From an uncultured Citromicrobium sp. (GTDB lineage Bacteria > Pseudomonadota > Alphaproteobacteria > Sphingomonadales > Sphingomonadaceae): 64,000 nt of DNA. The notes below the pieces were generated by a model, which saw nothing but the letters and a program-made list of their open reading frames with translations, ran no database searches and had not been told where the DNA came from. This document shows, piece after piece, positions 5,951 through 62,111 of this stretch; position 1 is the stretch's first letter, and the number at the start of each line of letters is the position of its first letter. The stretch lies in NCBI GenBank assembly GCA_964574905.1, contig CAZNOY010000013.1, positions 1,936 through 65,935 of the forward strand. The letters are read 5' to 3'. The translations under genes were made by a program, and so were the position numbers.

Positions 5951-6025
5951 TGGAGCGGGCGAGGCGATTCGAACGCCCGACCCCAACCTTGGCAAGGTTG
6001 TGCTCTACCCCTGAGCTACGCCCGC
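5951..6025 (-). tRNA. tRNA-Gly (anticodon GCC)
   Basis: The reverse complement folds as a cloverleaf: acceptor GCGGGCG/CGCCCGC, D arm GCTC..GAGC, anticodon stem CAACC/GGTTG with loop TTGCCAA, T loop TTCGAAT, discriminator T and encoded CCA. Confidence 0.93.
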
Positions 6026-6217
6026 TCACATGGCGTTTCCGGCAAGCAACCAATGGGCCTGTCCGGAACGGGAAGCGGGCAAGTAGCAATGCGCGCACCC
6101 TATCGCAAGCGCAAAATCACGTGCACCGATCGGCCCTTCACATCGCCCGCCAAAGGCCCACATTGGGGCCAACTGAAACCGCATCAATTCGCACGAAGGG
6201 GACCGCACTTGGCCAGC

Positions 6218-7117
6218 ATGGGGCTCAATCTAGACGAACAGAAAGCCGTCGACAGGTTTCGGGACGACGTAGTCGAACCCTCGATGTCCAAACTGGTGGT
6301 GCTCGATTTCTGGGCCGAGTGGTGCGGGCCGTGCAAGGCGCTGACGCCAGTGCTGGAAAAAGTCACCGCGGAATACGCCGACAAGGGCGTCGTTCTGAAA
6401 AAGCTCAACGTCGATGAAGAGCAGTTCATCGCTAGCCAGTTTCAGGTCCAGTCGATCCCCACGGTTTACGCGATGTTCCAAGGCCGCCCGGTGGCGGACC
6501 TCACCAGTGCACGCAGCGAAAGCCAGCTGCGCGATGCGCTCGACCAGATCCTCGCACAGTTGCCGATCGGCGAAGGCGGCGGCGAACAGCCGCAGCAAGA
6601 CGTCACCCAGTTCATCGAGATGGGCGAGAATGTGCTTGCCGAGGGCGAGAACGAGCGCGCGCTGGGTATATTTGCTCAGGTGATCGACATGGCGCCCGAC
6701 AATGCCGCCGCGCATGCCGGTCTGGTGCGCGCGATGGTCGCGCTGGGCGAGGCGGACAAGGCGCGCGAACACCTCGACAGCCTCGATGCCACGCTGGCCG
6801 AAGACCCCGCGATCAAGCGGGCGCGCTCCGCCATCGAACTGGCGGGCGAAAAGGTCGACGAAGGCGAACTCGCCAGCTTGCGCGACAAGGCGCAGGGCGG
6901 TGACATGGATGCACGCTATGCCTACGCCGAAGCCGCCTTCGCGGCCGGACAGCGCGATGCAGCCGCCGACGAACTGCTCGCCATGGTCGAAGCCGACCGC
7001 GAGTGGAACGAGGGCGCAGCGCGCACAAAACTGCTGCAGATCTTCGAGGCGGTCGGGCTGGAAGACCCGTGGGTGGTTGCGACGCGCCGCCGCCTCTCCA
7101 AGATCCTGTTCGGGTAA
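6218..7117 (+). CDS. thioredoxin-domain protein with TPR-like C-terminus (YbbN/CnoX-like co-chaperone)
   Basis: WAEWCGPCK active-site motif followed by a helical repeat tail. Starts at the internal ATG 6218. The upstream part of the track ORF overlaps the tRNA. Confidence 0.85.
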   Translation: MGLNLDEQKAVDRFRDDVVEPSMSKLVVLDFWAEWCGPCKALTPVLEKVTAEYADKGVVLKKLNVDEEQFIASQFQVQSIPTVYAMFQGRPVADLTSARSESQLRDALDQILAQLPIGEGGGEQPQQDVTQFIEMGENVLAEGENERALGIFAQVIDMAPDNAAAHAGLVRAMVALGEADKAREHLDSLDATLAEDPAIKRARSAIELAGEKVDEGELASLRDKAQGGDMDARYAYAEAAFAAGQRDAAADELLAMVEADREWNEGAARTKLLQIFEAVGLEDPWVVATRRRLSKILFG

Positions 7118-7122
7118 ACCTG

Positions 7123-7728
7123 GTGCGCCTATCGATATTCCCGCTGACCGGCGCGATTCTGTTTCCGGGCCTGCAATTGCCGCTCCACATGTTCGAGCCG
7201 CGGTATCGCGCGCTGGTGAGCGATGCGCTGGCGCGTGACCGGCGGATTGCGATGATCCAGCCGAAGACGGCGAGCGAGGGCGCGCCGCTCTACGACGTCG
7301 GTTGCATCGGCAAGATCGCCGATGTCGAGGCAATGGACGATGGGCGCTACAACCTCGTGCTCGACGGGGAGAGCCGCTTTCGCGTGACCCGTGAGCTCGA
7401 CGTCGCCACACCCTTCCGCCAGGTCGAAGGCGAGCTGATCGCCGAGGATGGCGATGAGGTGCTGAGCGGCATCGAACGCGCCGGGTTCGAACGCGAGGCG
7501 CGCCGCTTCGCGGATGCGCAGGGCTATTCGGTCGATTGGGATGCGGTCGCGCAGCTCGACGACCAGTCGCTGATCAACGGCGTGAGCCAGATCGCCCCGT
7601 TCGACGCGGCATCGAAGCAGGCGCTGCTCGAAGCGCCGGACCTTGCTGCGCGATGCGAGCTTCTGATCCAGCTGATGTACTTCTTCGGGCGGCAGAACGG
7701 CACCGACGACCGGGTTACCCTGCAATAA
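7123..7728 (+). CDS. LON-peptidase N-terminal (substrate-binding) domain protein
   Basis: LSIFPLTGAILFPGLQLPLHMFEPRYRALV is typical of Lon N-domains. GTG at 7123 lies just after the preceding stop. Confidence 0.75.
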   Translation: MRLSIFPLTGAILFPGLQLPLHMFEPRYRALVSDALARDRRIAMIQPKTASEGAPLYDVGCIGKIADVEAMDDGRYNLVLDGESRFRVTRELDVATPFRQVEGELIAEDGDEVLSGIERAGFEREARRFADAQGYSVDWDAVAQLDDQSLINGVSQIAPFDAASKQALLEAPDLAARCELLIQLMYFFGRQNGTDDRVTLQ

Positions 7729-7738
7729 GGCGGTTTGC

Positions 7739-8362
7739 CTAGGCCAGCAGCGTTCCGCGCAACCCGTCGATCACGAACTGCGCCGCGAAGGCTGCGAGCA
7801 ACACGCCGAGCAGGCGTGTGATGACCGCTTCGATCCGCGTGCCCACCAGCTTCATCAGCGGCCCCGCCGCAATCAGCGCGAACATGGTGAGCAGCAGCAC
7901 CAGCGCTGCGGCGGCGAACACCACGAGGCTTTCCTCGAGGCCCGTCGCCTGATTCATCAGCAGCATGATCGCCGCAATCGCCCCCGGCCCGGCCATCATC
8001 GGCATCGCCATGGGGAAGACCGAGACATCCTCTATCTCGGGATTGGCGTTGATCTTCTCAGCGCGTTCCTCGCGCCGTTCGGTGCGCTTTTCGAACACCA
8101 TTTCGATCGCGATGATGAACAGCATGATGCCGCCCGCGATGCGGAAACTGTCCAGCTCGATCCCGAGCGTCTGGAGCAGCTGTTCCCCGAACAAGCCGAA
8201 CACGAGCAGGATCAGCCCCGCGATCACCGCCGCGCGGATCGCCATGGAGATCGTTTGCCCGCGGCTCGCATCGCGAGTCAGACCGGCATATATCGGCGCG
8301 CAGCCGGGCGGGTCGACCACGACAAAGAAAGTCACGAAGGCAGAGACGAAAAGTTCGAGCAT
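7739..8362 (-). CDS. MarC family (UPF0056) inner-membrane protein
   Basis: N-terminus FVTFFVVVDPPGCAPIY and about six transmembrane segments. Confidence 0.8.
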   Translation of the reverse strand: MLELFVSAFVTFFVVVDPPGCAPIYAGLTRDASRGQTISMAIRAAVIAGLILLVFGLFGEQLLQTLGIELDSFRIAGGIMLFIIAIEMVFEKRTERREERAEKINANPEIEDVSVFPMAMPMMAGPGAIAAIMLLMNQATGLEESLVVFAAAALVLLLTMFALIAAGPLMKLVGTRIEAVITRLLGVLLAAFAAQFVIDGLRGTLLA

Positions 8363-8386
8363 CGGGTGCCTATCGGCTGAAACGGA

Positions 8387-9151
8387 TCATTGGGCGGACG
8401 GAGGGAAGGTCTCTTCGACAACCTTCTGCCACGCGCCAGATGTATAGTAATCCCCGCGAACATACTTTGTGCCGTCCTCGCGGTGCTCCCACACCCAGCG
8501 CAGCGTTCCATCGGGCGAAAGCTGTTCGCCGCGGCGCGCAGTGCCCGCGTCGGGAAGCGCAGGCGGCGGCGGAACCGGGTCCGATGCACTCGGGCAGTCG
8601 GCGACGAGCCCCTGCACCGCGTCATAGGCGGTCGCGACGATCTCGTTCGGGTCACGCTCAACCGGCTTGGGCTGGGGGTTGTCCTCCGCTCCGCTGTCGT
8701 AAACCCACTTGTAGTCGTCCTTGATGCCCTTCCGGGCCCACACCGTCACGAAGGTGCCGACGAGCCCTTCCGGATCGAGGAACCGACCGCGGCTGACCGC
8801 CAATTGGCCATCGCAGCTCATCATCACGGTGCGCGGCGACCACTGGACTGCCTTGGGCGGGTCGTCGAGTTGCGCCAGCACGGACTGCGCAGGCATTGGC
8901 CCGTTGCCCGTATGGAGCAGCGCATTGTCGGCAGCGAAGGCACGAAAGGCGGTCCACTGGCCGTCTTCGCGCGCCGCCCGCTCGAAGGCGATCTCGCGCG
9001 AGACGATCAGGCTCGGCTGCGCGGCATAGGGTGCGCTCGCCAGCACGCGGTCGATGACCTTGCTCGGCGTGCGTGGGCCTTGCCCCCCCATGCAGCCCGC
9101 CAGCGCAAGCGCGGCACAGCCAATTGCGGCGATCCGAAACATGGCGATCAC
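8387..9151 (-). CDS. hypothetical lipoprotein
   Basis: Lipobox (AALALAGC). Start is GTG 9151, which overlaps the folD stop, or ATG 9142. No family recognised. Confidence 0.6.
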
Positions 9152-10041
9152 AGTCCCTCCGGCGGTTCGAGGCCTTCGTGCGCGTGCGCGGCGACCAGCG
9201 TGTTGCGCAGCAGAACCGCGATGGTCATCGGGCCGACACCGCCGGGCACAGGTGTTATTCCACCCGCCACATCGCGCGCTCCGGCAAAGTCGACATCGCC
9301 CACCAGCCTCCCCTTGGTTTCACCCTCGGCGGGCATCAGGCGGTTGATCCCGACATCGATCACCGTCGCGCCGGGCTTCAGCCAGTCGGCCTTGACCATT
9401 TCCGCGCGGCCCACTGCGGCAACGACGATATCGGCGCGGCGCACCACATCGGGCAGGTCCTTGGTCCGGCTGTGCGCGATGGTGACCGTCGCGTTCGCGT
9501 CGAGCAGCAGCTGCGCCATCGGCTTGCCGACGATGTTGGAGCGGCCGATGACGACCGCGTTCATGCCCGACAGGTCGCCGTGCCGGTCGCGCAGCAGCAT
9601 CATGCAGCCAAGCGGGGTGCACGGCACGAAGCCGGTGCGCCCGACCATGAGCCGCCCTGCATTTTCGACATGGAAGCCGTCGACATCCTTGCCCGGATCG
9701 ATCGCCGCGATCACCGCCTGCTCGTCGAGATCGCCCGGCAGCGGCAATTGCACCAGGATACCGTCGACCGCCGGATCGGCGTTGAGCTGCTCGACCAGCG
9801 CGATCAGATCGTCCTGCGATGTGTCCGCAGGCAGGCGATGCTCGAAGCTCTCCATGTTCGCGGCGACGGTCGCCTTGCCCTTGGAGCGGACATAGACCTC
9901 GCTCGCCGGGTCTTCGCCCACCAGCACCACGGCGAGGCCCGCCTTGCGGCCTGCCTTTTCGGCAAACGCAGCGGCGTGCGCGCCAACACGTTCGCGCAGT
10001 TCGGCCGCGAAGGCCTTCCCGTCGATCAGCTCAGCGGTCAA
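9148..10041 (-). CDS. folD: bifunctional methylenetetrahydrofolate dehydrogenase/cyclohydrolase
   Basis: [12 protein letters not shown]..., [47 protein letters not shown]. No in-frame ATG or GTG lies upstream of the conserved N-terminus. TTG at 10041 overlaps the yggT stop. Confidence 0.9.
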
Positions 10042-13784: not shown

Positions 13785-14096
13785 TCAGCGCCCGCGATAA
13801 GGCTCGCAAGCGACACCATCGCCATCGCGGTCGAGATGCGGACCATACCCCGGCTCGCCATACCGGATCGGCGCGGCGCCTGCCGCGCGGGCGGCAGCGC
13901 AATTCCTGTAGGATGCGATGGCGCCGACTTCCTGCCGCATCGACTGCTCGCCCCACCGCCGATCGAAAGCGGCCTGCGGATCGACCACATCTTCCTTTGC
14001 GGAAGACCACGGCAGATTGTCGGGCATCCCGAATTTCGCGACCCCAACCACACCGAGCAGGGCGACGGTGAAGAAAACTTCCAGCAGGCGTCTCAT
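13785..14096 (-). CDS. Excalibur calcium-binding domain protein, N-terminally anchored
   Basis: C-terminal DRDGDGVACE motif preceded by NCAAARAAGAAPI. N-terminal transmembrane segment. Confidence 0.75.
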   Translation of the reverse strand: MRRLLEVFFTVALLGVVGVAKFGMPDNLPWSSAKEDVVDPQAAFDRRWGEQSMRQEVGAIASYRNCAAARAAGAAPIRYGEPGYGPHLDRDGDGVACEPYRGR

Positions 14097-14143
14097 GCGC
14101 GGGAGCGTACACGCGGTTAGTGAGCGGAAAGTGCGCCGGTATA

Positions 14144-14257
14144 GTGAACGCGGCGCATCGGCAGGCGATCAAGCGAAGGGCAATCGAACTGCTCAAAAAG
14201 CTCGGGCGGAACGACCCGTGCCCGTGCGGTTCGGGATGAGATTTCAAGCGCTGCTGC
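14144..14257 (+). pseudogene. relic of a SEC-C motif protein C-terminus with an in-frame TGA
   Basis: The frame reads ...ELLKKLGRNDPCPCGSG*DFKRCC. This fits CPCGSGxK[FY]KxCC, with TGA (14237-14239) at an x position. No protein body lies upstream. Confidence 0.45.
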
Positions 14258-14396
14258 CTGCGCTTCGGGCGCCATAATGGGGCCGGGCGGCGGGACTATT
14301 GGCGGTGAATGGTGAAGCGCTCCGGGCGGAGCGAGAGGTTCGCCCGGGTGGATCAACTGGGCGTTCTTGCAGGCTATTTTGAACGGCCGATGTAAA

Positions 14397-15212
14397 TTAA
14401 AAACTGATTTCCCTGTGAATTGTGACCGGGCTCAGGCCATAAACGTCAGCGGGACGACCAAATAAGCCGACAAAGGGTATGATGATCTGGGCGATAATGG
14501 TTGTGGAGCCGGAGAGAATTTTTTTCTCGCCGAACTTATCCAACTCGCCTCCTCCCAGTGTTACATAGTCGCCGGGCAGGGCGTCGACAATTCCGCCCAC
14601 ATGCCAATGGCCACCTATTTCAACTGGGAACTTCAGAGGTATATCGAGATCCTGTATCTGAAGAAATTCCCGCTTCACGTTAAACCAAAACACATGCTCT
14701 TCAGAAAAAAGGACGAAAATCACACCCAATGGCAGCGCTTGCGTGAATTTTATTATAATATCGGCAAGGCGCTTCCGCTCTTCCTTTTGAACTTTAGCAC
14801 TCCGCTCTTTATCAGAAGCTTCGAGCCCTTCGGCGATTTGATCAATGATCGCTTCACTTTGCAGAAGATCATTGAAAAGCTTTTGATCTACCGCAACCAG
14901 CTTGCCAGTCGCCATGATAAGTTGACCGTAATCCAACTCGCGCTGCTCAGATGCGGTCGACTTTTCTTCGACTAGCCCAACGAACTTTGTTGAATTGATC
15001 CAAAGCGGGTCGTACTCCTCGCGGAGCTGTCGATTCAGATCTGTACTTCCCAACCTTTGGCCGCTGACGGGACCGAGAGACCCCTTTACAGCACCTTCAG
15101 ACGACTTGGATTTCCCCGAAATCCGTTCGTAGCCGGTCAGTGCCCCTACCCCTTCGATTTGAGAAACCAGCGCCGCGACTCTTTCATGGTCCGCATAAAG
15201 GAAGTCGATCAT
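14397..15212 (-). CDS. orphan hypothetical protein (271 aa) in an AT-rich islet
   Basis: Clean ORF, 26 nt downstream of the nrdB stop on the same strand. Sampled 60-nt lines give 37-48% GC, against about 67% in nrdB. No catalytic motif recognised. Confidence 0.7.
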   Translation of the reverse strand: MIDFLYADHERVAALVSQIEGVGALTGYERISGKSKSSEGAVKGSLGPVSGQRLGSTDLNRQLREEYDPLWINSTKFVGLVEEKSTASEQRELDYGQLIMATGKLVAVDQKLFNDLLQSEAIIDQIAEGLEASDKERSAKVQKEERKRLADIIIKFTQALPLGVIFVLFSEEHVFWFNVKREFLQIQDLDIPLKFPVEIGGHWHVGGIVDALPGDYVTLGGGELDKFGEKKILSGSTTIIAQIIIPFVGLFGRPADVYGLSPVTIHREISF

Positions 15213-15238
15213 ATGGCCCTCTACTTGGACTAAGGGTC

Positions 15239-16312
15239 CTACTCCGCCGCTTCTGGCTGGCTACTCCCCCCAGCATCATCGCCGAACAGCCCCGGGCCGT
15301 CGTCCTCGGTGCCGTCCACCTCGTTCGCGGCCTTGGCCTTGGTGCGTTTGTCGAAGGTGCTCCACACCGTGTTCCAGTCGCCCTTGGTGGCGCCCTTGGA
15401 ATATTCGGTGGCGCGCTGTTCGAAGAAGTTGGCGTGCTCCACGCCGTTGAGCAGCGGGGTCAGCCACGGCAGCGGGTGATCGTCGATCATGTAGATCGGC
15501 TGCAGGCCCAGCTGACCCAGCCGCCAGTCCGCGATGTAGCGGATGTACTTCTTGATCTCCTTCGCGGTCATCCCGGAAACCGGGCCCATTTCGAAGGCGA
15601 GGTCGATGAAGTTGTCTTCCAGCCGCACCGACTTCTGGCAGATGTCGATGATGTCTTCCTTCACCGCCTTGGTGTAGCAGTCGCGCTCGCGCACGAATTC
15701 GTGGAACAGCCGCACGATGCCTTCGCAGTGGAGGCTTTCGTCGCGGACCGACCAGCTGACGATCTGGCCCATGCCCTTCATCTTGTTGAAGCGCGGGAAG
15801 TTCATCAGCATGGCGAAGCTGGCGAACAGCTGCATGCCTTCGGTGAAGCCGCCGAACGCCGCGAGCGTACGGGCGATATCCTCGTCCGTGTCGACGCCGA
15901 ACAGCTGCAGGTAATCGTGCTTGTCCTTCATCTCCTCGTATTCGAGGAACATGCCGTATTCGCTTTCGGGCATGCCGATCGTGTCGAGCAGGTGGCTGTA
16001 GGCCGCGATGTGGATCGTCTCCATGTTGGAGAACGCGGCCAGCATCATCTTGATCTCGGTCGGCTTGAACACGCGGCCGTATTTTTCGTGGTAGCAGTCC
16101 TGCACCTCGACATCGGCCTGGGTGAAGAAGCGGAAGATCTGGGTGAGCAGGTTGCGCTCGTGATCGGAAAGCTTCTGCGCCCAGTCGCGGCAATCCTCAC
16201 CCAAGGGCACTTCCTCGGGCATCCAGTGAACCTGCTGCTGTCGCTTCCAGAAGTCGTACGCCCACGGATATTCGAAGGGCTTGTAGGTCTTGCGGGCTTC
16301 GAGCAGCGACAT
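15239..16312 (-). CDS. nrdB: ribonucleoside-diphosphate reductase beta subunit (class I)
   Basis: YKPFEYPWAYDFWKRQQQVHWMPEEV, iron-ligand-type EAVHSE-like regions, 357 aa from the internal ATG 16312. Confidence 0.9.
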   Translation of the reverse strand: MSLLEARKTYKPFEYPWAYDFWKRQQQVHWMPEEVPLGEDCRDWAQKLSDHERNLLTQIFRFFTQADVEVQDCYHEKYGRVFKPTEIKMMLAAFSNMETIHIAAYSHLLDTIGMPESEYGMFLEYEEMKDKHDYLQLFGVDTDEDIARTLAAFGGFTEGMQLFASFAMLMNFPRFNKMKGMGQIVSWSVRDESLHCEGIVRLFHEFVRERDCYTKAVKEDIIDICQKSVRLEDNFIDLAFEMGPVSGMTAKEIKKYIRYIADWRLGQLGLQPIYMIDDHPLPWLTPLLNGVEHANFFEQRATEYSKGATKGDWNTVWSTFDKRTKAKAANEVDGTEDDGPGLFGDDAGGSSQPEAAE

Positions 16313-16378
16313 TGGTGTTCTCCGGGGCGCGGGGGCCTTCTTCGGTGGTTGCGATCTTGCAGGGTCTGCCAACATAAG

Positions 16379-17207: not shown

Positions 17208-19820
17208 ATGAATCGAATGGTTTGCATCGCAGCGGCGGCACTGGCGGCTGCGGCAGCCGCACCCACCTCGGCTCAGGAGTGCGCGAGCGAGACAGACACT
17301 CGCACGAAAACCGGGCAGGCGGCCCAGGATCTGGCAGAGGGGGTCGCCGCCATGATGGCGGAGATCGACGCCGAGGCGGAGGGCGAAACGGCGACCGCCT
17401 ATGCGTTTCTCGATGGCGAGGAACCGGGCAACCCGCTCGAACTGACGGCCGAGGATATCGCCTTTTTCGCCTGCGAAGAAGGCGCGGTGTCGAACTATCG
17501 CGCCTACCCTCGCCGAGAGCAGATTGCCTGGCTGGTGAGGTTGCATTCTGCGCTCGCGGGCGGAGGCACGCTCGACGATGCGGCGGAGGCGATTGCGGGC
17601 GATACCCGGATTGCACCGGCAGCCGCGCGAGAGGTGTCTCGCCTGTGGCTGATCTCGTCGATCAACGGCTTCCGGATGAGGGAATCGGATGGTGAGATGG
17701 TTGCCGAGTTCCGACGGCAGGCGTTCGACGCGCTCGAAGCGGCAGGCGGGCACCCGACGGCGCTGGCGGTGCTGGCTGAAGCTCTCGATACGGTCGACGA
17801 GTGCGCACAGGCCAATTTCGACGGTCTGCTTTCGCGCGCCGCGCCCGGCACCGACGCGGCCTGGATCATCGCAGAGGCGGCCACCTGCAGCCGGAACTAC
17901 GTGCGCGCTCTGCAAGCCGATCCCGCGCACGCCGTCGCACCAGTCTACCGCCTGGCGACCTATGGCTCGCTGAGCGATGTGCGAAGCATCCCGGTGCTCG
18001 AATGGCTGGCGAGCGATGCCGCAGTCGCAGCCGTCGCGCCCGCCGATCGGGCGAGCTACCGGAGCGGCATCACCGCGCGCCTGCTCGACCAGTTGTTCGA
18101 AAGCGGCCTGACCGAACGCGCGCTGGCGCTTTACGATGGCCTGCCATCCGAGGTGCAGGAGCGGATCATCGCAAGTGGGGCGCCCGTCGCGACCGACGAG
18201 AAATCTCGACGCAGCGTCGAAACCGGCCGCACCATCACCATTTCAGGTCACTCGGTCGTGTGGAAGGAATTCGAACCCTGGAGTGCGCTGACAACTCACC
18301 TCGCCATCGCACTCTACAACGCGGGTCGTGTGCCGGAGGCAGAGGCGCTGCTCCAATCCGACATCAGACTGGCGGAGAGCCGCAAGTGGGCCGAATGCAG
18401 GACCGATTTCGAACGTAAGACTCAGTGCGGGGACGAACCGGATTCGCAAACCATCTTGCTGCTCGACAAGCAGATGCACCAACCCGAGAGCGATCCCTAC
18501 CCGTTGGCCGAGGTCATTTTCGGGAGCGGTTTTCCAGGCTCCATCTCTCAATCCGGACCGGTCGCCGATCTCGGCTGCATCGTCTTCGCCGAGCCGCAAT
18601 ATGCCGATATCTGCGATAGCCTGCGCCAGTCGGTAGCGCGCAGCGCGACGCTCGACCTGGACGATTACGAGGCCGAAGAATCGGAGCCGGCATTCGCCGC
18701 GATCCGCGATCTGGGCCTGCCCGGCTTTGCGGCAATCGCAGCGGCAACGGACCAGCGGCTGGCGCAGGCGCGCGCCGCCTATGGCCCGCTCGACGATGAC
18801 AACTGGCAGCGCGAGCGGGTCGATCCGGTCTATCCCGACTTTGCCGTCTCCCGGCAGCCCGCCGATGCCCCGCGCCTTGCGAACGAGGGCGACGATGTGG
18901 AAGGGCCCGAATGGCCAGACAATTTTGGCGATCCGCCGCCCGCGATGTGGCCGCTACGCTGGGATGTGGACGGCGACAGGGTTACCGCGATCGCGATCTC
19001 GCCGATCTTCGATCCGGCGGGCGAAGTCTCCCCCGGCGGGTACTGGGTGTTGTTGTCGGAAAACGGCGGGAAGAGCTGGGCCGACGCGCTCTACACCGGC
19101 CTCTCGGCCTATTTCCCTTTTGTCTTCGATGCCGCATCGACCATGCGGCTGCGCGATGGCGACACGATCCACCTGCCGGTGGAGCGCGCGCTGATCGACA
19201 CCTCGACGATCACCTATCCGCCGATCGGCACGCAAACGATCGATCGCGAAGGCGGGCTGGTACTCGACCTGCCGCTCGATCGGCTGCGCGCGGACAGCGA
19301 TAATGACGGGCTCACCGACCTTGCCGAAGCGCACCTGCTGCTCGACCGCCCGCGCGAAGGGCTCGATACGCCCTTCGTGGTCGGCAACTATGTGCCCGTG
19401 ACATGCGAGGGCCCGCCCGATCGGCAGATGCTCGCGCGCGCGGAGATGTTCGCGCATATTTTCCAGACTTCGGCGCGCGCCATCGTGGAACCGGTCGACC
19501 GCCCCCCTTCGCAGATCATAGGTGGATGGAAGCGCGTGCCGACAGCCGAAAACCTGCCGCTGTTCATCGCGGGCGATCCGGCGGATTTCGCCTGCCTGTC
19601 GATCGCGCAGCCGGTGATGGTCTATTCGCAGGACGACATAGCCGAGCTGCAACGCCGCACGCCCGACTTCCGCACGATCAAACTGCCGCGCATGGTCGTC
19701 AATCGGGCGGGCACGCGCGGCTACGTCCAGTGGTCGGCGGGCTGGACCGGCGGCACGCTGCTATTCCTGTGGGAAGACGGCGCGTGGCGGGTCGAAACCA
19801 TCAGCGAGTGGATCACCTAG
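17208..19820 (+). CDS. large secreted hypothetical protein (870 aa)
   Basis: Signal peptide (MNRMVCIAAAALAAAAAAPTSAQ). One DSDNDGLTD calcium-binding-like motif. No family recognised. Confidence 0.7.
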   Translation: MNRMVCIAAAALAAAAAAPTSAQECASETDTRTKTGQAAQDLAEGVAAMMAEIDAEAEGETATAYAFLDGEEPGNPLELTAEDIAFFACEEGAVSNYRAYPRREQIAWLVRLHSALAGGGTLDDAAEAIAGDTRIAPAAAREVSRLWLISSINGFRMRESDGEMVAEFRRQAFDALEAAGGHPTALAVLAEALDTVDECAQANFDGLLSRAAPGTDAAWIIAEAATCSRNYVRALQADPAHAVAPVYRLATYGSLSDVRSIPVLEWLASDAAVAAVAPADRASYRSGITARLLDQLFESGLTERALALYDGLPSEVQERIIASGAPVATDEKSRRSVETGRTITISGHSVVWKEFEPWSALTTHLAIALYNAGRVPEAEALLQSDIRLAESRKWAECRTDFERKTQCGDEPDSQTILLLDKQMHQPESDPYPLAEVIFGSGFPGSISQSGPVADLGCIVFAEPQYADICDSLRQSVARSATLDLDDYEAEESEPAFAAIRDLGLPGFAAIAAATDQRLAQARAAYGPLDDDNWQRERVDPVYPDFAVSRQPADAPRLANEGDDVEGPEWPDNFGDPPPAMWPLRWDVDGDRVTAIAISPIFDPAGEVSPGGYWVLLSENGGKSWADALYTGLSAYFPFVFDAASTMRLRDGDTIHLPVERALIDTSTITYPPIGTQTIDREGGLVLDLPLDRLRADSDNDGLTDLAEAHLLLDRPREGLDTPFVVGNYVPVTCEGPPDRQMLARAEMFAHIFQTSARAIVEPVDRPPSQIIGGWKRVPTAENLPLFIAGDPADFACLSIAQPVMVYSQDDIAELQRRTPDFRTIKLPRMVVNRAGTRGYVQWSAGWTGGTLLFLWEDGAWRVETISEWIT

Positions 19821-56947: not shown

Positions 56948-56951
<4 letters not shown>

Positions 56952-59704
56952 GCGCCCCGCCCCTCTCCAACCAGCGCGCCATCATCGACCGGCGCAAGCT
57001 CGCGGCCCTGATCGCCGCGACGCAGGAGCAGGACGGCACCGCGCGCGACGCGGTGCTGGCGATGCTGCGCGAGGCGCTCGATGCGGGGCGCGCAGAACTG
57101 TCGCGCAGGCTGGCCGAGCATCCTTCGGCGGGCCACGCGCATTGCGGGGGCAACAGCTTCCTGATCGATCAGCTGATGCGGCTGATTCATGATTACGCTG
57201 CCACCCGGCTTGCCCCCGTGCTGGAGGGCGAACGGGCGCGCGCGCTCACGCTGGTGGCTGCGGGCGGATACGGGCGCGAGGAACTGGCCCCGCATTCGGA
57301 CATCGACATCGCGTTCTTCGTCGAACGCGCTGACGACCCGCGCACGGTCAAGCTGATCGAGGCGATCCTCTACCTGATGTGGGATCTGGGGCTGACGGTC
57401 GGCCATTCGGTGCGCACGGTCGACGATATCGTTGCCATGTCGAAAGCCGACGGCACGATCCTGACCTCGCTGCTCGAATGCCGTTACCTGTGGGGGGACG
57501 AGGCGCTCTACGAAGAGGCGCGGCGACGCTTCTACGCCGAGGTGGTCGCCGGACACGAGCGGCAGTTCGTCGCCGAAAAGCTGCGCGAACGCGATGCCCG
57601 GCACAAGCGGATGGGCGACACGCGCTACGTGGTCGAACCCAATGTGAAGGAAGGCAAGGGCGGCCTGCGCGATCTGCATGCGCTGTACTGGATCGGCAAA
57701 TGCATCCACCGCGTGCGCAACGCGGCGGAACTGGTCGATGCGGGGCTGTTCACCAAGGCGGAGTATCGCAGCTTCCGCCGCGCGGAAGGCTTCCTGCTCG
57801 CCGTGCGCTGCCACCTGCACGAGATCACCGGCCGGGCAGAGGATCGCCTGACCTTCGACCTGCAAAAGGAAATCGCGCGGCGGATGCACTTCGCCGACCG
57901 GCAGGGCAAGAGCGCGGTCGAGCGGTTCATGCAGTACTATTTCCTCCAGGCGAAACGGGTCGGATCGCTCACCGGCGTGTTCCTCAGCCAGCTGGAGGAT
58001 CAGTTCGCCAAAAAGCGCGTGCGGCGCGGGCTGCTGGCGGGGTTCACTGCAAAGCCGCGCACGCTGCGCGGCTACACCGTGTTCGCGGGCAAGCTCGCCG
58101 CGCCGGGCGACGAGTGGTTCCGCAAGGACCCTGTGCGCCTGATCGAGATCTTCCAGATCGCCGAGAGCGAACAGCTGGAGATCGACCCGCGCACGATGCG
58201 GCAGGCGGACCGCGACAGCGGATCGATCAACGATGCGGTGCGCGACGATCCGCGCGCCAACGCGCTGTTCCTCGATCTGCTGGCCGGGCGCAACGACCCG
58301 GAAACCGTGCTGCGCTGGATGAACGAGGCGGGCGTGTTCGGCCGCTTCGTGCCCGATTTCGGGCGGGTCAACGCGCAGATGCAGTTCAACATGTATCACC
58401 ACTACACGGTCGACGAGCACACGATCCGCGCGATCGGTTTTCTCCACGCGATCGAGCAGGGCGAGCTGGCGGAGGAACACCCGCGCGCGACCCGCGAAAT
58501 CCATAGCCTGAAGAGCCGCCGCGTGGCCTTCGTCGCCACGCTGCTGCACGACATCGCCAAGGGGCGCGGCGGCGACCATTCGATCCTCGGTGCCGAGGTT
58601 GCGGAACGGCTGTGCCCGCGTTTCGGGCTGACCGAAGAGGAAACCGAACTGGTCGCGTGGCTCGTGCGCCAGCACCTGTTGATGAGCCACACCGCGTTCA
58701 AGCGCGACCTCGCCGACCCCAAGACGGTCGAGGATTTCGTCGCCGAGGTGCAAACGCTCGAGCGCTTGCGCCAGCTCGCGATCCTGACTGCGGTCGATAT
58801 CCGCGCGGTGGGCCCGGGCACCTGGAACAGCTGGAAGGGCCAGCTGCTCGGCGAACTCTACGACCTGACGCACGAACGCCTGCGGCTGGGCCATGCCACC
58901 AGCGGGCGCGAGGGGCGCGTGGCCGCGAAGAAGGATGCGGTGCGCGAGGCGCTGGGTGACAAGGCGGGGCTGATGGACAAGCTGGGCAACCTGCTCACCG
59001 CGCCATACTGGATCGCCGAACCGCCCGACATCGCGGCGCGCAACATCGTGCAGTACTCGGTCGCGCGCGAGCGGGGCGAGGCGCTGTCGGTCCATTGCGA
59101 GGCGGACGAGGAACGGGGCGCGACGCTGGTCACGGTGATCGCCGCCGACCATCCGGGCATTTTCATGCGCATCGCGGGCGCGATCCATCTCGTCGGCGGC
59201 AACATCATCGACGCGCGCGTCCACACCACGCGCACCGGCTTCGCGATCGACAACTTCCTCGTGCAGGATCCGCACGGGCGCCCGTTCGGCGAAGACACCC
59301 AGCTCGAGAGGATCGAGCGCAGCATTGCCGAGACGCTGACCAGCGGGAAGCAGCTGGTGCCCAAGCTCGCCCAGCGCCCCTTGCCCATTCGCGGCGCGGG
59401 CGCGTTCGACGTGCGGCCCTTCGTCGCGTTCGACAACGACGCTTCGCACCGGTTCACCGTGATCGAAGTCGGCGCGCGCGACCGGCCTGCGCTGCTCAAC
59501 CGGCTGGCGCGGGTGCTGTTCGAACATCACGCGATGCTCCGCTCGGCCCATATCACCCACTATGGCGAGCGCGCGGCGGACACCTTTTACGTGACCGACC
59601 TGACCGGCGACAAGATCACCGACGAAGCACGGCTCGCAGGGCTGCGCACCGCGCTGATCGACGCGGCGAGCGACGAGATGCAGGCCGAGCTGGAGCCTGC
59701 CTGA
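56948..59704 (+). CDS. glnD: [protein-PII] uridylyltransferase/uridylyl-removing enzyme
   Basis: Nucleotidyltransferase (GGYGREELAPHSDIDI), HD domain (LLHDIAKG) and two C-terminal ACT-like regions. The in-frame TTG at 56948 overlaps the upstream TGA. Confidence 0.92.
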
Positions 59705-59995
59705 GCGCCCGTGCGACGCTCGGTTGCGCAAAGCGCAAGTTGACGAAGCACATGCAGCGCAGTGTGTTTGAAGAAGCGCGCCCGGAGGCGTCGCGGATCA
59801 CGATGTGAAAGAGCGGGCCAGCGACGCTAGCATCGGGCGCGCAAGTAGGAAAACGCGTGGCGGGTAGGCGGTGCAGAGAAGAATGACGACTTTGCGCCCT
59901 AATTTCGGTCGTTTGCATCCTCGTTCTAGCCACCCGCAAGCGGACTATGAGATTGCGGACCTATGTTAACGTTGAAAGATGGTTTTCTAGAGCAT

Positions 59996-60016
59996 GATTG
60001 GAGTCGCGCTCCAATC
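59996..60016 (+). other. perfect 8-bp hairpin (gattggag-tcgcg-ctccaatc) in the AT-rich islet leader
   Basis: Read directly. Confidence 0.5.
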
Positions 60017-60168
60017 TTAGCCCGCTCCCACCTAGGAGGGCGTGCGGCCATCTAGTATCACAAGACAAATGGGGATCGGTCACATGAGCGTCTATCGCCA
60101 CTTAAATATCTGATTAAAATGCTACCTCGGCTTTCTGAGGTAGACTGTGGTGCTTAGCGACGAAGTCC

Positions 60169-60191
60169 ACAGGACTGTCGGTCAGTCCTGT
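60169..60191 (+). other. perfect 9-bp hairpin (acaggactg-tcggt-cagtcctgt), 35 nt upstream of the SIR2 gene ATG
   Basis: Read directly. No T-run follows, so it is not a canonical terminator. Confidence 0.5.
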
Positions 60192-60225
60192 AGCGAACGC
60201 AGCCACGATCAAATGGTGAGGCGCG

Positions 60226-62007
60226 ATGAGTATACTGGCTGACGATCCCCTCACACAGCTTTCCTTCTCCGTTCACCAGAATAAGGGCGTATTCGCCTTG
60301 TTGCTCGGCTCGGGCCTGTCCCGCGCTGCAGGCATCCCGACAGGTTGGGAAATCACTCTGGACCTGATCCGCCGCGTTGCCCTTGCCCAAGGTGTGGAGA
60401 AACAGACAGATTGGGCTGATTGGTATCGCAAGAAGACAGGCCAGGAACCCGACTATTCTGCTCTGCTTGAAGAGCTCGGCGCATCGCCTGACGAGCGCCG
60501 TTCGATTTTGCACGGTTACATCGAACCGACCGATGAAGACCGTGAAGAAGGGCGAAAGGTTCCGACGGCTGCACATCAAGCTATCGCCGATCTCATTCAA
60601 AGCGGCCACATTCGCGTTGTCATTACGACCAACTTTGACCGCCTCTTGGAAAATGCCTTGCGGGAGCGTGGCGTCGAACCCACCGTCGTGGCGTCCGCCG
60701 ATGCGCTGGAAGGTGCGGAGCCGCTAACCCACACTTCTTGCTACATTTTGAAACTTCACGGGGACTATAAGGATGCGCGCATCCTGAACACGGATGCGGA
60801 ATTAAGCGCATACCCCGAGCAGTATGAAGTTGCCCTCGACCGCATTCTTGACGAGCATGGTTTGATCGTATGTGGCTGGTCAGGCGAGTGGGACCACGCC
60901 TTGCGCGCCGCATTTCTACGCGCACCAAACAGGCGATACACTGTCTATTGGGCTTCGCGAGGTGCACCGAAGGAGGGCGCGGACGAATTAATCAAGCATC
61001 GTGCGGCACGCTTGATTCCGATATCTGACGCCGACAGTTTTTTCGGGGGGCTTCGCCAGCGCGTGGAAACGCTTGAGGAAAGCCAACGGCAAGATCCTGT
61101 CAGTATTGATCTTCAGGTCGGTAGCGCTAAGCGCTTCCTCGCAAGGCCTGAATACCGCATCCAGCTCGACCAACTTTTTGCCGACGAGACAGAGCGGCTT
61201 CTTGCGCAACTCGATAACCCCGAATTCTCCGCGCAAGGGTCATGGGACCAAGAGCAATTCAGAAACCGCGTCGCAAGGTACAACGCCGCCAGCGAGACGC
61301 TTGCCTCCATGGTCGGTGTGCTTGGGCGTTGGGGTGATGGAACCGAATTCCGACTCGTTCTCGATGTCATTCGCACTCTGTCTGCTCATGCCGACAAAGA
61401 AGGTAGTGGCCTGACAGTCTATCTTGGTCTTCGCTCCTATCCTGCTGTTTTGATCTTCACAGCGTACGGCTTGGGGCTGGTCAGGGCCGAGCGCTGGGAC
61501 GTTCTCCACCAACTTTACTCCGCGACGATCGACAAAAAATACGGCGACCCAGTTCGCATTGTGGACTCGCTTTTTCTGTGGGCTTGGAGTGGTGACGAGA
61601 AAAGCGTCTGGCAGCAGATGGAAGGCATGGAGCGGCATAAGACGCCGCTCAGTGATTACCTGTTGTCGCTATTTTCCGATTGGGGAAAACGGTTCATCGG
61701 CCTGACTCCCGACTTCGAGCTCATGTTCGAGCGCTTCGAATTTCTCGGATCACTGGTGCATCTGGAACAGAACGAAAAGGCCGATATCGATAAGCAACTC
61801 GCAGAAGGACAAAGCCGAAATTTCGCCTGGATGCCCGTTGGTAGGTCGGGCTGGAATGGAAAGAACGCCCAGAAGCTGGTCGCGGAGATTCAGGTCGATG
61901 TCAGGAAGGTCACCCTTGCAAACGCAGGGTTCGGAAAGGGCGATCCGGCGTTCATCGACGTGTTTGTAGAAAATTTCAGGCGTATCGCAGGCCAGATGCG
62001 TTGGTAA
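60226..62007 (+). CDS. SIR2_2-like (defence-type sirtuin/NADase) domain protein with an unassigned C-terminal domain
   Basis: Ordered motifs LLLGSGLSRAAGIPTGWEITLDL, VVITTNFDRLLENAL, ILKLHGD, LIVCGWSGEWD. GGTGAGG lies 5 nt upstream of the ATG. Sampled lines give 40-50% GC. Confidence 0.8.
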   Translation: MSILADDPLTQLSFSVHQNKGVFALLLGSGLSRAAGIPTGWEITLDLIRRVALAQGVEKQTDWADWYRKKTGQEPDYSALLEELGASPDERRSILHGYIEPTDEDREEGRKVPTAAHQAIADLIQSGHIRVVITTNFDRLLENALRERGVEPTVVASADALEGAEPLTHTSCYILKLHGDYKDARILNTDAELSAYPEQYEVALDRILDEHGLIVCGWSGEWDHALRAAFLRAPNRRYTVYWASRGAPKEGADELIKHRAARLIPISDADSFFGGLRQRVETLEESQRQDPVSIDLQVGSAKRFLARPEYRIQLDQLFADETERLLAQLDNPEFSAQGSWDQEQFRNRVARYNAASETLASMVGVLGRWGDGTEFRLVLDVIRTLSAHADKEGSGLTVYLGLRSYPAVLIFTAYGLGLVRAERWDVLHQLYSATIDKKYGDPVRIVDSLFLWAWSGDEKSVWQQMEGMERHKTPLSDYLLSLFSDWGKRFIGLTPDFELMFERFEFLGSLVHLEQNEKADIDKQLAEGQSRNFAWMPVGRSGWNGKNAQKLVAEIQVDVRKVTLANAGFGKGDPAFIDVFVENFRRIAGQMRW

Positions 62008-62111
62008 GGCCGTTGGCCGTTTTGCCGACCCCAGGCCGAAGCGTCCGCTATTGAGCGGATAAAGCCCAGAACCGGACAAGCACCCCACGCCCACAAGCCG
62101 CCCCTAGCCCG

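Follow-up and report, generated by a model that had tools for sequence, protein, structure and literature searches.

Introduction

SIR2-type NADases are a recurrent executioner in bacterial immunity. To our knowledge, their triggers are known for few architectures: a SLOG domain and glycocyclic ADP-ribose (gcADPR), the DSR2 solenoid and tail tube protein, a prokaryotic Argonaute (pAgo) with its guide and target, and STAND sensors. Here we compare with such systems a gene at positions 60226 to 62007 of a 64-kb stretch of DNA (64,000 nucleotides (nt), hereafter the window) from an uncultured Citromicrobium sp., contig CAZNOY010000013.1. The gene encodes a SIR2 protein of 593 amino acids (aa) that belongs to PDC-S65, a family catalogued in PADLOC. 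The closest solved relative of its SIR2 domain, by sequence as well as by fold, is the SIR2-APAZ subunit of SPARSA (8jkz, 8in8, 8y80), in which Sir2 is the NAD+-depleting effector. DSR1 and DSR2 are the closest analogue in logic, being single genes with an N-terminal SIR2 NADase and a helical, phage-sensing C-terminal region. A SIR2 NADase effector is also found in ThsA of type I Thoeris, and the same SIR2 fold and catalytic motif recur in KomC of Kongming, a SIR2-only subunit of 264-278 aa in a multi-gene system, and in Avs5, which carries a STAND NTPase. Titles of PDB entries and abstracts describe activation of the SIR2 domain in KomC and Avs5 as the formation of filaments or oligomers.

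We consider it somewhat probable that the window gene is a self-contained, single-gene anti-phage candidate of the abortive-infection type, horizontally acquired and belonging to PDC-S65. A single-gene SIR2 NADase with a fused sensor is a well-known kind of system; the C-terminal domain (CTD) of this protein and the way in which the gene appears to have travelled are less familiar, and both are described below.

A defence-type SIR2 protein of the PDC-S65 family

The following features of the open reading frame (ORF) and its product are used throughout.

60226..62007, + strand: ORF of 593 aa, a PADLOC PDC-S65 member (SIR2 plus novel CTD), with ATG at 60226 and TAA at 62005-62007
60226..61077, + strand: predicted SIR2_2 Rossmann-type NADase domain, aa 1-284 (Pfam, Foldseek and phmmer)
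60631..60633, + strand: codon of the predicted catalytic Asn136 (TTNFD), aligned with defence sirtuins
60757..60759, + strand: codon of the predicted catalytic His178 (KLHGD), aligned with defence sirtuins
61093..62004, + strand: all-alpha CTD, aa 290-593, a proposed sensor/switch module (AlphaFold2 model, no fold match, domain recurrence)

A Shine-Dalgarno-like element, GGTGAGG, lies 5 nt upstream of the ATG. A first-pass annotation had read the protein as a SIR2_2-type NADase on the basis of four motifs, and these are present and in order: LLLGSGLSRAAGIPTGWEI at aa 25, VVITTNFDRLLE at aa 131, ILKLHGD at aa 174 and CGWSGEWD at aa 216. The assignment itself holds as well, with Pfam SIR2_2 (PF13289) scoring 45.9 bits against a cut-off of 24.5 (E = 7.9e-12). 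Asn136 and His178 fall in the same alignment columns as the residues of TTNFD and KIHGD in SPARSA Sir2 and of TTNYD and KFHGD in KomC. Among the 46 family members in which catalytic residues and domain divergence were counted, the Asn is kept in all 46 and the His in 45; the PDB holds an entry for a KomC H146N mutant. With phmmer against PDB sequences, aa 10-244 match the SPARSA Sir2 subunit (8jkz, 8in8; E = 3e-10). Foldseek with the model of the whole protein likewise places SPARSA Sir2 first (8y80_E, E = 6e-11), followed by DSR2, KomC and ThsA at E-values up to 2e-7, and all of these matches run through the SIR2 half. The alignments support a SIR2 of the defence type whose catalytic Asn/His pair is intact, and we infer that the domain hydrolyses NAD+.

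No Walker A motif and no hydrophobic segment occur in the 593 aa, which contain two cysteines in total and have neither a CxxC pair nor zinc-binding Cys pairs. The AlphaFold2 model of the whole protein, built from a 46-sequence alignment, has a Rossmann-type N-terminal half and an all-helical C-terminal half, with a predicted local distance difference test score (pLDDT) of 84.4 and a predicted template modelling score (pTM) of 0.64.

When scanned against PADLOC-DB v2, the protein is matched almost end to end by the PDC-S65 model PDLC05061 (E = 4.9e-227), with aa 5-590 covering model positions 15-588 of 592, and a second PDC-S65 hidden Markov model (HMM) also aligns end to end (E = 2.9e-213). 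Its remaining PADLOC matches are confined to the SIR2 domain: Aga_SIR2-PNTD (SIR2-APAZ) aligns to aa 18-257, ThsA1 to aa 112-184 and the SIR2 protein of SIR2-HerA to aa 25-151. In NCBIfam nothing comes near threshold, Dsr1 reaching 11.1 bits against a cut-off of 1400. The first-pass annotation had proposed an undescribed single-gene SIR2 defence variant; that the gene is single and is neither a ThsA nor a DSR stands, whereas 'undescribed' has to be withdrawn in view of the full-length match to PDC-S65.

The letters PDC abbreviate 'phage defence candidate'. The 145 such candidates, single- and multi-gene, were derived and entered into PADLOC by Payne et al. (10.1101/2024.01.29.577857) through guilt-by-embedding, that is, as genes lying inside BREX, DISARM and type I restriction-modification (R-M) loci. 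Our literature search found no paper that names PDC-S65 and no experimental work on the family; 'S65' does not occur in the supplement text of Payne et al. that was searched, and properties of the CTD are absent from their text and from the searched supplements. Public annotation calls the homologues 'SIR2 family protein' only. The family is already catalogued as a candidate single-gene system, as a database name only. Measured against the literature searched, the following appear to be new: a CTD whose fold has no assignment, the recurrence of this domain with TIR, caspase-like or ParA-like domains or as a stand-alone protein beside ThsB, the single-gene cassette structure, and the cargo slot between glnD and yggS.

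A compact helical domain that evolves faster than the SIR2 domain

Residues 290-593 had been described in the first-pass annotation as helical and free of any recognisable motif. The AlphaFold2 model of the CTD alone (aa 285-593) agrees with this, consisting of 17 helices in a compact arrangement (pLDDT 88.2, pTM 0.91). Foldseek retrieves nothing at E <= 1e-3 from either the PDB (best E = 0.19, TM <= 0.27, to designed armadillo repeats) or BFVD (best E = 0.54), so that the compact helical fold has no repeat-solenoid match in the PDB, and Pfam returns nothing even at E <= 10.

Within the SIR2 fusions, mean pairwise identity is 58.5% for the CTD versus 77.2% for the SIR2 domain, and the SIR2 domain is the more similar of the two in 99.9% of pairs. 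Such faster divergence would be expected of a module that faces phage counter-evolution. Some positions are nevertheless held fixed. Across 20 sequences that represent all architectures, K302, L314, Y405 and L479 (window numbering) are invariant, and positions 312, 348, 352, 353, 369, 395, 406, 409, 427, 467, 474, 505, 537 and 539 are at least 90% conserved; at position 353 the window protein has Asn, as opposed to the consensus Glu. The polar and aromatic positions kept across architectures are K302 and Y405, together with R348, Y352, W369 and E505 of the consensus.

The same domain is joined to other effectors

An exhaustive HMMER search with the CTD alone, covering 1.84 billion representative proteins, yielded 1349 clusters at E <= 1e-3. 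Full-length matches of 570-610 aa carry the CTD at about residues 285-595, after a SIR2 domain. Four further architectures were found.

P0151, 460 aa: TIR_2 plus CTD
P0263, P0397 (35 member sequences), P0403 and P0409: Peptidase_C14 (caspase-like) plus CTD; P0253 is a truncated copy
P0141: ParA-like P-loop plus CTD, with an N-terminus that matches PADLOC PDC-M28B
P0398 and P0394, about 295 aa: stand-alone CTD, with upstream DNA that is stop-rich and unrelated

The domain is joined most often to SIR2 and to caspase-like proteases, and PADLOC recognises every one of these architectures solely by the CTD portion of its PDC-S65 models. The swapping of effectors on a constant, faster-evolving domain looks like the signature of an immune sensor or switch module. 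To this extent the earlier proposal that the C-terminal half acts as a sensor is upheld: the domain behaves as a modular sensory or regulatory unit, and sensing as such is what that behaviour suggests.

Several candidates were set aside. P0125, from an isolate genome, had the appearance of a stand-alone CTD protein. Upstream of it, the reading frame still contains the last part of a SIR2 domain, broken off by a stop codon, so P0125 is what is left of a truncated SIR2 fusion. It lies at the start of a contig of Halopseudomonas laoshanensis (L094 1-2144), and a full-length PD-Lambda-4_B homologue (E = 6.5e-74) comes after it. P0157 and P0181 were rejected as extra fusion types, their N-termini resembling fragments of unrelated genes, and are probable gene-call chimeras. 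A DUF4062 gene beside the stand-alone P0394 was considered as a partner and judged independent, given its convergent orientation and the description of Swarozyc as acting with the phage portal.

The stand-alone P0398 (295 aa) is followed 60 nt downstream by a gene for a full-length ThsB1-type TIR protein (E = 8e-120). No ThsA lies beside this pair (L095 7001-8901, L096 210-2110), which is situated in an island with type I R-M, Fic and LmuB-like genes. The caspase-like fusion P0403 is followed in two independent assemblies by a DUF5677 gene of 273 aa (L097 3589-6131, L098 2186-4728), which may be a partner or a regulator.

Homologues occupy defence islands, mobile elements and plasmids without a constant partner

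At least 4700 homologues came out of a word-index search, and its top 120 are all 587-673 aa long and 62-93% identical. Among species representatives of GTDB we located 230 loci, the best 80 of the 230 at 51-71% identity; the hosts are alpha-, beta- and gamma-proteobacteria, together with metagenome-assembled genomes labelled Synechococcus, Bifidobacterium, Poribacteria and Thermodesulfobacteriota. On plasmids, 63 records carry homologues, 26 of them near full length and 21 conjugative. Halobacterium salinarum and its relatives have plasmid homologues at 88% coverage and 34.5% identity (H11-H18), and the SIR2-CTD architecture therefore crosses the boundary between bacteria and archaea on plasmids. 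In phage genomes the similarity is partial and limited to the SIR2 domain.

At 75 loci, every ORF lying up to 6 kb from the gene was clustered. No neighbour is universal, and no cluster of neighbours exceeds a single clade of 12 loci that share a whole island. The contexts vary from locus to locus among defence islands and mobile elements, a point that the first-pass annotation had proposed to check. Among the 111 immediate neighbours at 57 non-redundant loci, the commonest Pfam family, ResIII, appears 5 times. Neighbours include R-M systems of types I-IV, LmuB, mad3, PDC-S06, HEC-01B and DUF4276/AAA_21, as well as TniQ, integrases, an ISL3 transposase and genes of type IV secretion systems. 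A 93%-identical copy sits between a tyrosine integrase and a Upx gene; a 71% homologue adjoins HigB/HigA, a resolvase and Abi_alpha; and a 73% homologue, P0002 (L088), lies between a type III CBASS operon (Trip13-like AAA, Cap8, HORMA, SMODS and NucC) and a TIR gene. This TIR gene begins 55 nt downstream on the same strand, and its product matches PDC-S66 over its full length (E = 1e-100) and ThsB1 at E = 9e-42. PADLOC treats PDC-S65 and PDC-S66 as separate single-gene candidates, and at L088 the two stand next to each other (6060-8742), after the CBASS operon. No small antitoxin-like gene is conserved beside family members.

Two groups share an island as a whole. The first comprises the 12 loci just mentioned, from Afipia, Bradyrhizobium, Rhizorhabdus and relatives, and the second about 8 loci from Stenotrophomonas, Pseudomonas, Zoogloea and relatives. 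The 12-locus island (L047-L056, L063 and L073) has identical spacing, with the SIR2 gene at 10001 in most cases, and its hosts include Sphingorhabdus and Hyphomicrobiaceae. Besides the SIR2 fusion, the island encodes PD-T7-1 (E = 1.5e-83), a T5orf172/MUG113 protein, DUF4238 and a weak DUF2971 match, and 40 nt downstream of the fusion lies the gene for a CoiA_N-like protein of 621 aa. A PDC-S66-like TIR ORF is found about 5.8 kb upstream of the fusion.

Taken over the loci examined, PDC-S65 has no conserved partner, and its contexts are defence islands, mobile elements and plasmids. The window agrees with this. The first-pass annotation had seen none of the usual partners next to the gene, and none is there: no TIR/ThsB, HerA, pAgo or STAND gene is adjacent, the neighbours being glnD and yggS, and a TIR profile search of the whole 64 kb found nothing.

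A single-gene cassette in a variable slot between glnD and yggS

The surroundings of the gene in the window are as follows.

56948..59704, + strand: glnD, a flanking core gene outside the system (Pfam GlnD_UR_UTase, HD and ACT), conserved in relatives
59858..62095, no strand: variable slot between the glnD and yggS flanks, holding the islet of low guanine-plus-cytosine content (GC), 0.54-0.57 inside
59889..62011, + strand: putative transferred cassette of about 2.1 kb, made up of a 337-nt leader, the ORF and 4 nt after the stop
59889..60225, + strand: conserved non-coding leader, presumed promoter plus 5' untranslated region, conserved with locus L086
62112..62783, - strand: yggS, a flanking core gene outside the system (Pfam Ala_racemase_N), named as a YggS family pyridoxal phosphate (PLP) enzyme

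The gene had been described as standing alone in an AT-richer islet between these two core genes, and the composition bears this out. GC is 0.553 over 59889-62011 versus 0.68 in glnD and yggS, and GC at third codon positions is 0.61 in the islet versus 0.88 and 0.87 in the flanks; the islet is compositionally foreign. The window itself comes from a metagenome scaffold of Erythrobacteraceae; its YggS is 89-90% identical to that of Alteriqipengyuania and 87% identical to that of Citromicrobium. Against the Alteriqipengyuania relatives, homology breaks off at 59857 (L090) or 59913 (L091) and is regained at 62089-62096.

The DNA shared with an integrase-linked copy is confined to 59889-62011, and no other locus shares DNA outside the ORF. 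This cassette is 89.3% identical to L086/L087 over 2135 columns, and in those loci the shared segment begins about 20 nt after a tyrosine-integrase gene. Because the relatives' homology stops and resumes at its edges, the cassette fills the variable slot almost exactly. By the evidence of shared DNA and composition, we take the gene to have been acquired horizontally as a single-gene cassette. Exchange by homologous recombination through the conserved flanks would be a plausible route. Around the islet, searches for target-site duplications and inverted repeats gave short matches at chance level only, and the slot in the window has no tRNA or integrase, the sole tRNA of the window lying at 5951-6025. 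L086-L089 are likewise without a tRNA.

Other genomes hold different cargo at this junction.

L090 6673-9059, Alteriqipengyuania sp. NZ-12B: slot cargo, a 637-aa DUF7380/DUF4209 protein that is PADLOC PDC-S39 (E = 1e-92)
L091 6673-8993, A. lutimaris: slot cargo, a pentapeptide protein, a nucleotidyltransferase (NTP_transf_2) and a 110-aa protein
L092 6673-7229, Citromicrobium: slot cargo, an NTP_transf_6 gene

Comparison of the junction in these relatives reveals a variable slot with changing contents, supporting the view that the glnD-yggS junction behaves as a cargo slot in Erythrobacteraceae.

The leader has no meaningful match in Rfam (E of 0.3 or worse, to eukaryotic families) and no convincing or conserved small ORF, and the z-score of its RNA fold, -1.23, is insignificant. 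A sigma-70 scan, uninformative for this host, gave no match. The leader contains a perfect 7-bp hairpin at 60122-60143, CTACCTC-GGCTTTCT-GAGGTAG, that is 100% identical in L086. In minus-strand orientation a T-rich tract comes after this hairpin, which then scores as terminator-like. A further hairpin, around 60170-60192, lacks conservation.

Elsewhere in the window there is a second islet of low GC (0.53) at 14000-15250. It contains an ORF of 271 aa (14397-15212, - strand) without a Pfam or PADLOC match, and is adjoined by an ORF at 15239-16375 (- strand) that by eye resembles the small subunit of ribonucleotide reductase. An 870-aa ORF at 17208-19820 (+ strand) also has no Pfam or PADLOC match.

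Proposed mechanism and alternative explanations

In the mechanism that we propose, the SIR2_2 domain would be the effector, an NAD+ hydrolase kept inactive in uninfected cells, and the CTD would be the control module, detecting a cue of infection that is most likely a phage protein or else some other macromolecule specific to infection. On detection the CTD would release or assemble the SIR2 NADase, probably through a change of oligomeric state as in other defence sirtuins, and the ensuing depletion of NAD+ would stop phage replication and abort the infection. An anti-phage function, the sensing role of the CTD and activation driven by oligomerisation are all predictions. They are supported by the partnerless mobility of a single gene, by the defence contexts, by the modularity of the CTD and by the exchange of cargo in the slot.

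Several points weigh against this proposal. A defence role for PDC-S65 is read from context only: Payne et al. themselves call the PDCs untested (10.1101/2024.01.29.577857), and the authors of DefensePredictor left them out 'because they are unvalidated'. The enrichment of defence genes among the neighbours is qualitative. Weaker constraint could equally produce the faster divergence of the CTD, and its conserved polar and aromatic set fits a ligand or interface site at least as well as it fits a sensor of variable phage proteins. Since TIR genes recur near family members, some members may need a partner. Finally, the relative arrangement of SIR2 and CTD is not defined, because the pTM of the whole-protein model is only 0.64.

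One alternative keeps the single-gene NADase and would have the CTD monitor a host factor or process, or act as an oligomerisation scaffold that is freed when a host partner is perturbed. The core residues of the CTD are strongly kept whether it is fused to a SIR2, TIR, caspase or ParA-like domain, and in bacteria as well as on haloarchaeal plasmids; a conserved cellular ligand would account for this more readily than diverse phage proteins, and a compact helical domain without a repeat-solenoid match suits such a role. The guarded factor, however, would have to be universal across the hosts, because the family moves across proteobacteria, actinobacteria, firmicutes and archaea, and the CTD diverges much faster than the SIR2 domain; on balance we find this explanation unlikely.

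The main alternative likens the protein to ThsA. The CTD would bind a nucleotide-derived signal made by a TIR protein of the ThsB or PDC-S66 type, in place of the SLOG domain, and only then would SIR2 fire; the window gene would have to rely on a TIR gene elsewhere in its genome, or be an orphan. The TIR genes 55 nt downstream of P0002 and about 5.8 kb away in the 12-locus island, and the full-length ThsB1 match 60 nt downstream of the stand-alone P0398, argue in this direction, as do the polar and aromatic CTD positions kept across architectures. So does the fact that the two commonest partners of the CTD are Thoeris effector classes, SIR2 and caspase-like proteases being the effectors of types I and IV (10.64898/2025.12.03.692087), and in some lineages PDC-S65 and PDC-S66 may form a two-gene SIR2 and TIR unit. 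Against this, a TIR gene occurs within 10 kb in only 2 independent contexts among about 59 non-redundant SIR2-fusion loci, and is adjacent in 1; TIR is absent from the recurrent neighbour families and from the 64-kb window, and the unit that moved into the window genome is one gene. The TIR-CTD fusion P0151 agrees better with TIR being an alternative effector than with TIR generating a signal, and a stand-alone receptor domain without an effector makes little sense. Both the fusion and the stand-alone CTD beside a TIR gene are simpler to explain if TIR is another NADase effector under CTD control. Dependence on a TIR-made signal accordingly strikes us as quite improbable for the window gene.

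Least credible, and in our judgement very improbable, is a non-immune role as a regulatory sirtuin (a deacylase or ADP-ribosyltransferase) or as a selfish addiction or toxin module that travels with defence islands: for it speak a weak local NCBIfam similarity to CobB-type deacylases near the NAD-binding motif (E = 8.6e-5, far below cut-off) and the fact that the homologues are publicly annotated only as 'SIR2 family protein' in a family known from sequence alone, and against it the low NCBIfam scores (11-22 bits versus cut-offs of 221-395), the lack of zinc-binding Cys pairs, the best structural and sequence relatives, which are all defence NADases, the contexts and the exchange of the effector for TIR and caspase domains, both typical of immune modules, and the want of a conserved antitoxin-like small neighbour.

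Implications

The preferred reading, a partnerless SIR2 NADase controlled by its own CTD, describes a family whose existence will not surprise specialists, and which offers a well-defined, widespread and experimentally tractable lead. It counts more than 4700 close homologues, with the CTD in 1349 representative clusters, and spans Proteobacteria, Actinobacteria, Firmicutes and haloarchaeal plasmids. Because the same CTD joins TIR and caspase-like effectors, finding its trigger would explain several candidate systems and could add a new sensing principle. Slots of the glnD-yggS type give a useful starting point in the search for more systems in a marine lineage that has been sampled poorly.

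A wider and more doubtful proposal is that the CTD is an unrecognised, widespread immune switch domain that would serve at least three effector classes in cis (SIR2, TIR and caspase-like) and ThsB-type TIRs in trans. In its boldest version, the CTD would be a new receptor for a TIR-made nucleotide signal, and lone copies would be receivers of signals made elsewhere; if that were true, SIR2 fusions together with PDC-S66 would constitute a new Thoeris-like type.

Comparison with known systems

Set against the systems with which we began, the window protein shares an effector and departs from each in its remaining parts. With SPARSA Sir2 it has the TTNFD and K[LI]HGD motifs in common, but it has no APAZ region, its CTD is not matched by the 8y80 or 8jl0 chains, and no Argonaute gene is adjacent. 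It resembles DSR1 and DSR2 in plan and is much shorter, as had been remarked at the outset, with 593 aa versus about 1000-1260 aa; the CTD does not retrieve the MID or solenoid of DSR2 in Foldseek searches, and sequence similarity is limited to aa 122-184.

Family members sometimes adjoin ThsB-like TIR genes, as ThsA does, although there is no adjacent ThsB in the window or at most loci. Nor is there a SLOG-like C-terminus, a point on which the first-pass annotation was right: the CTD is all-alpha, it has no match in the PDB even though ThsA structures were in the searched set, and the ThsA1 models align only to aa 112-184. KomC, as a SIR2-only subunit of a multi-gene system, is unlike the two-domain window protein, and the STAND NTPase of Avs5 has no counterpart in it, there being no Walker A motif or NTPase Pfam match. 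SIR2-HerA (Nezha) would bring a HerA gene, and none adjoins the window ORF. For CobB-type deacylases, PF02146 scores 12.9 bits versus a cut-off of 24, the NCBIfam models score 13-22 bits versus cut-offs of 221-395, and the zinc-binding Cys4 set is missing. Because SLOG, APAZ, Walker A, CxxC and DSR/CTD matches are absent, the protein is not a ThsA, a SIR2-APAZ protein, a DSR1 or DSR2, an Avs5 or a CobB-type deacylase. It is a member of PDC-S65, whose HMM it matches over its full length and whose single-gene architecture it shares.

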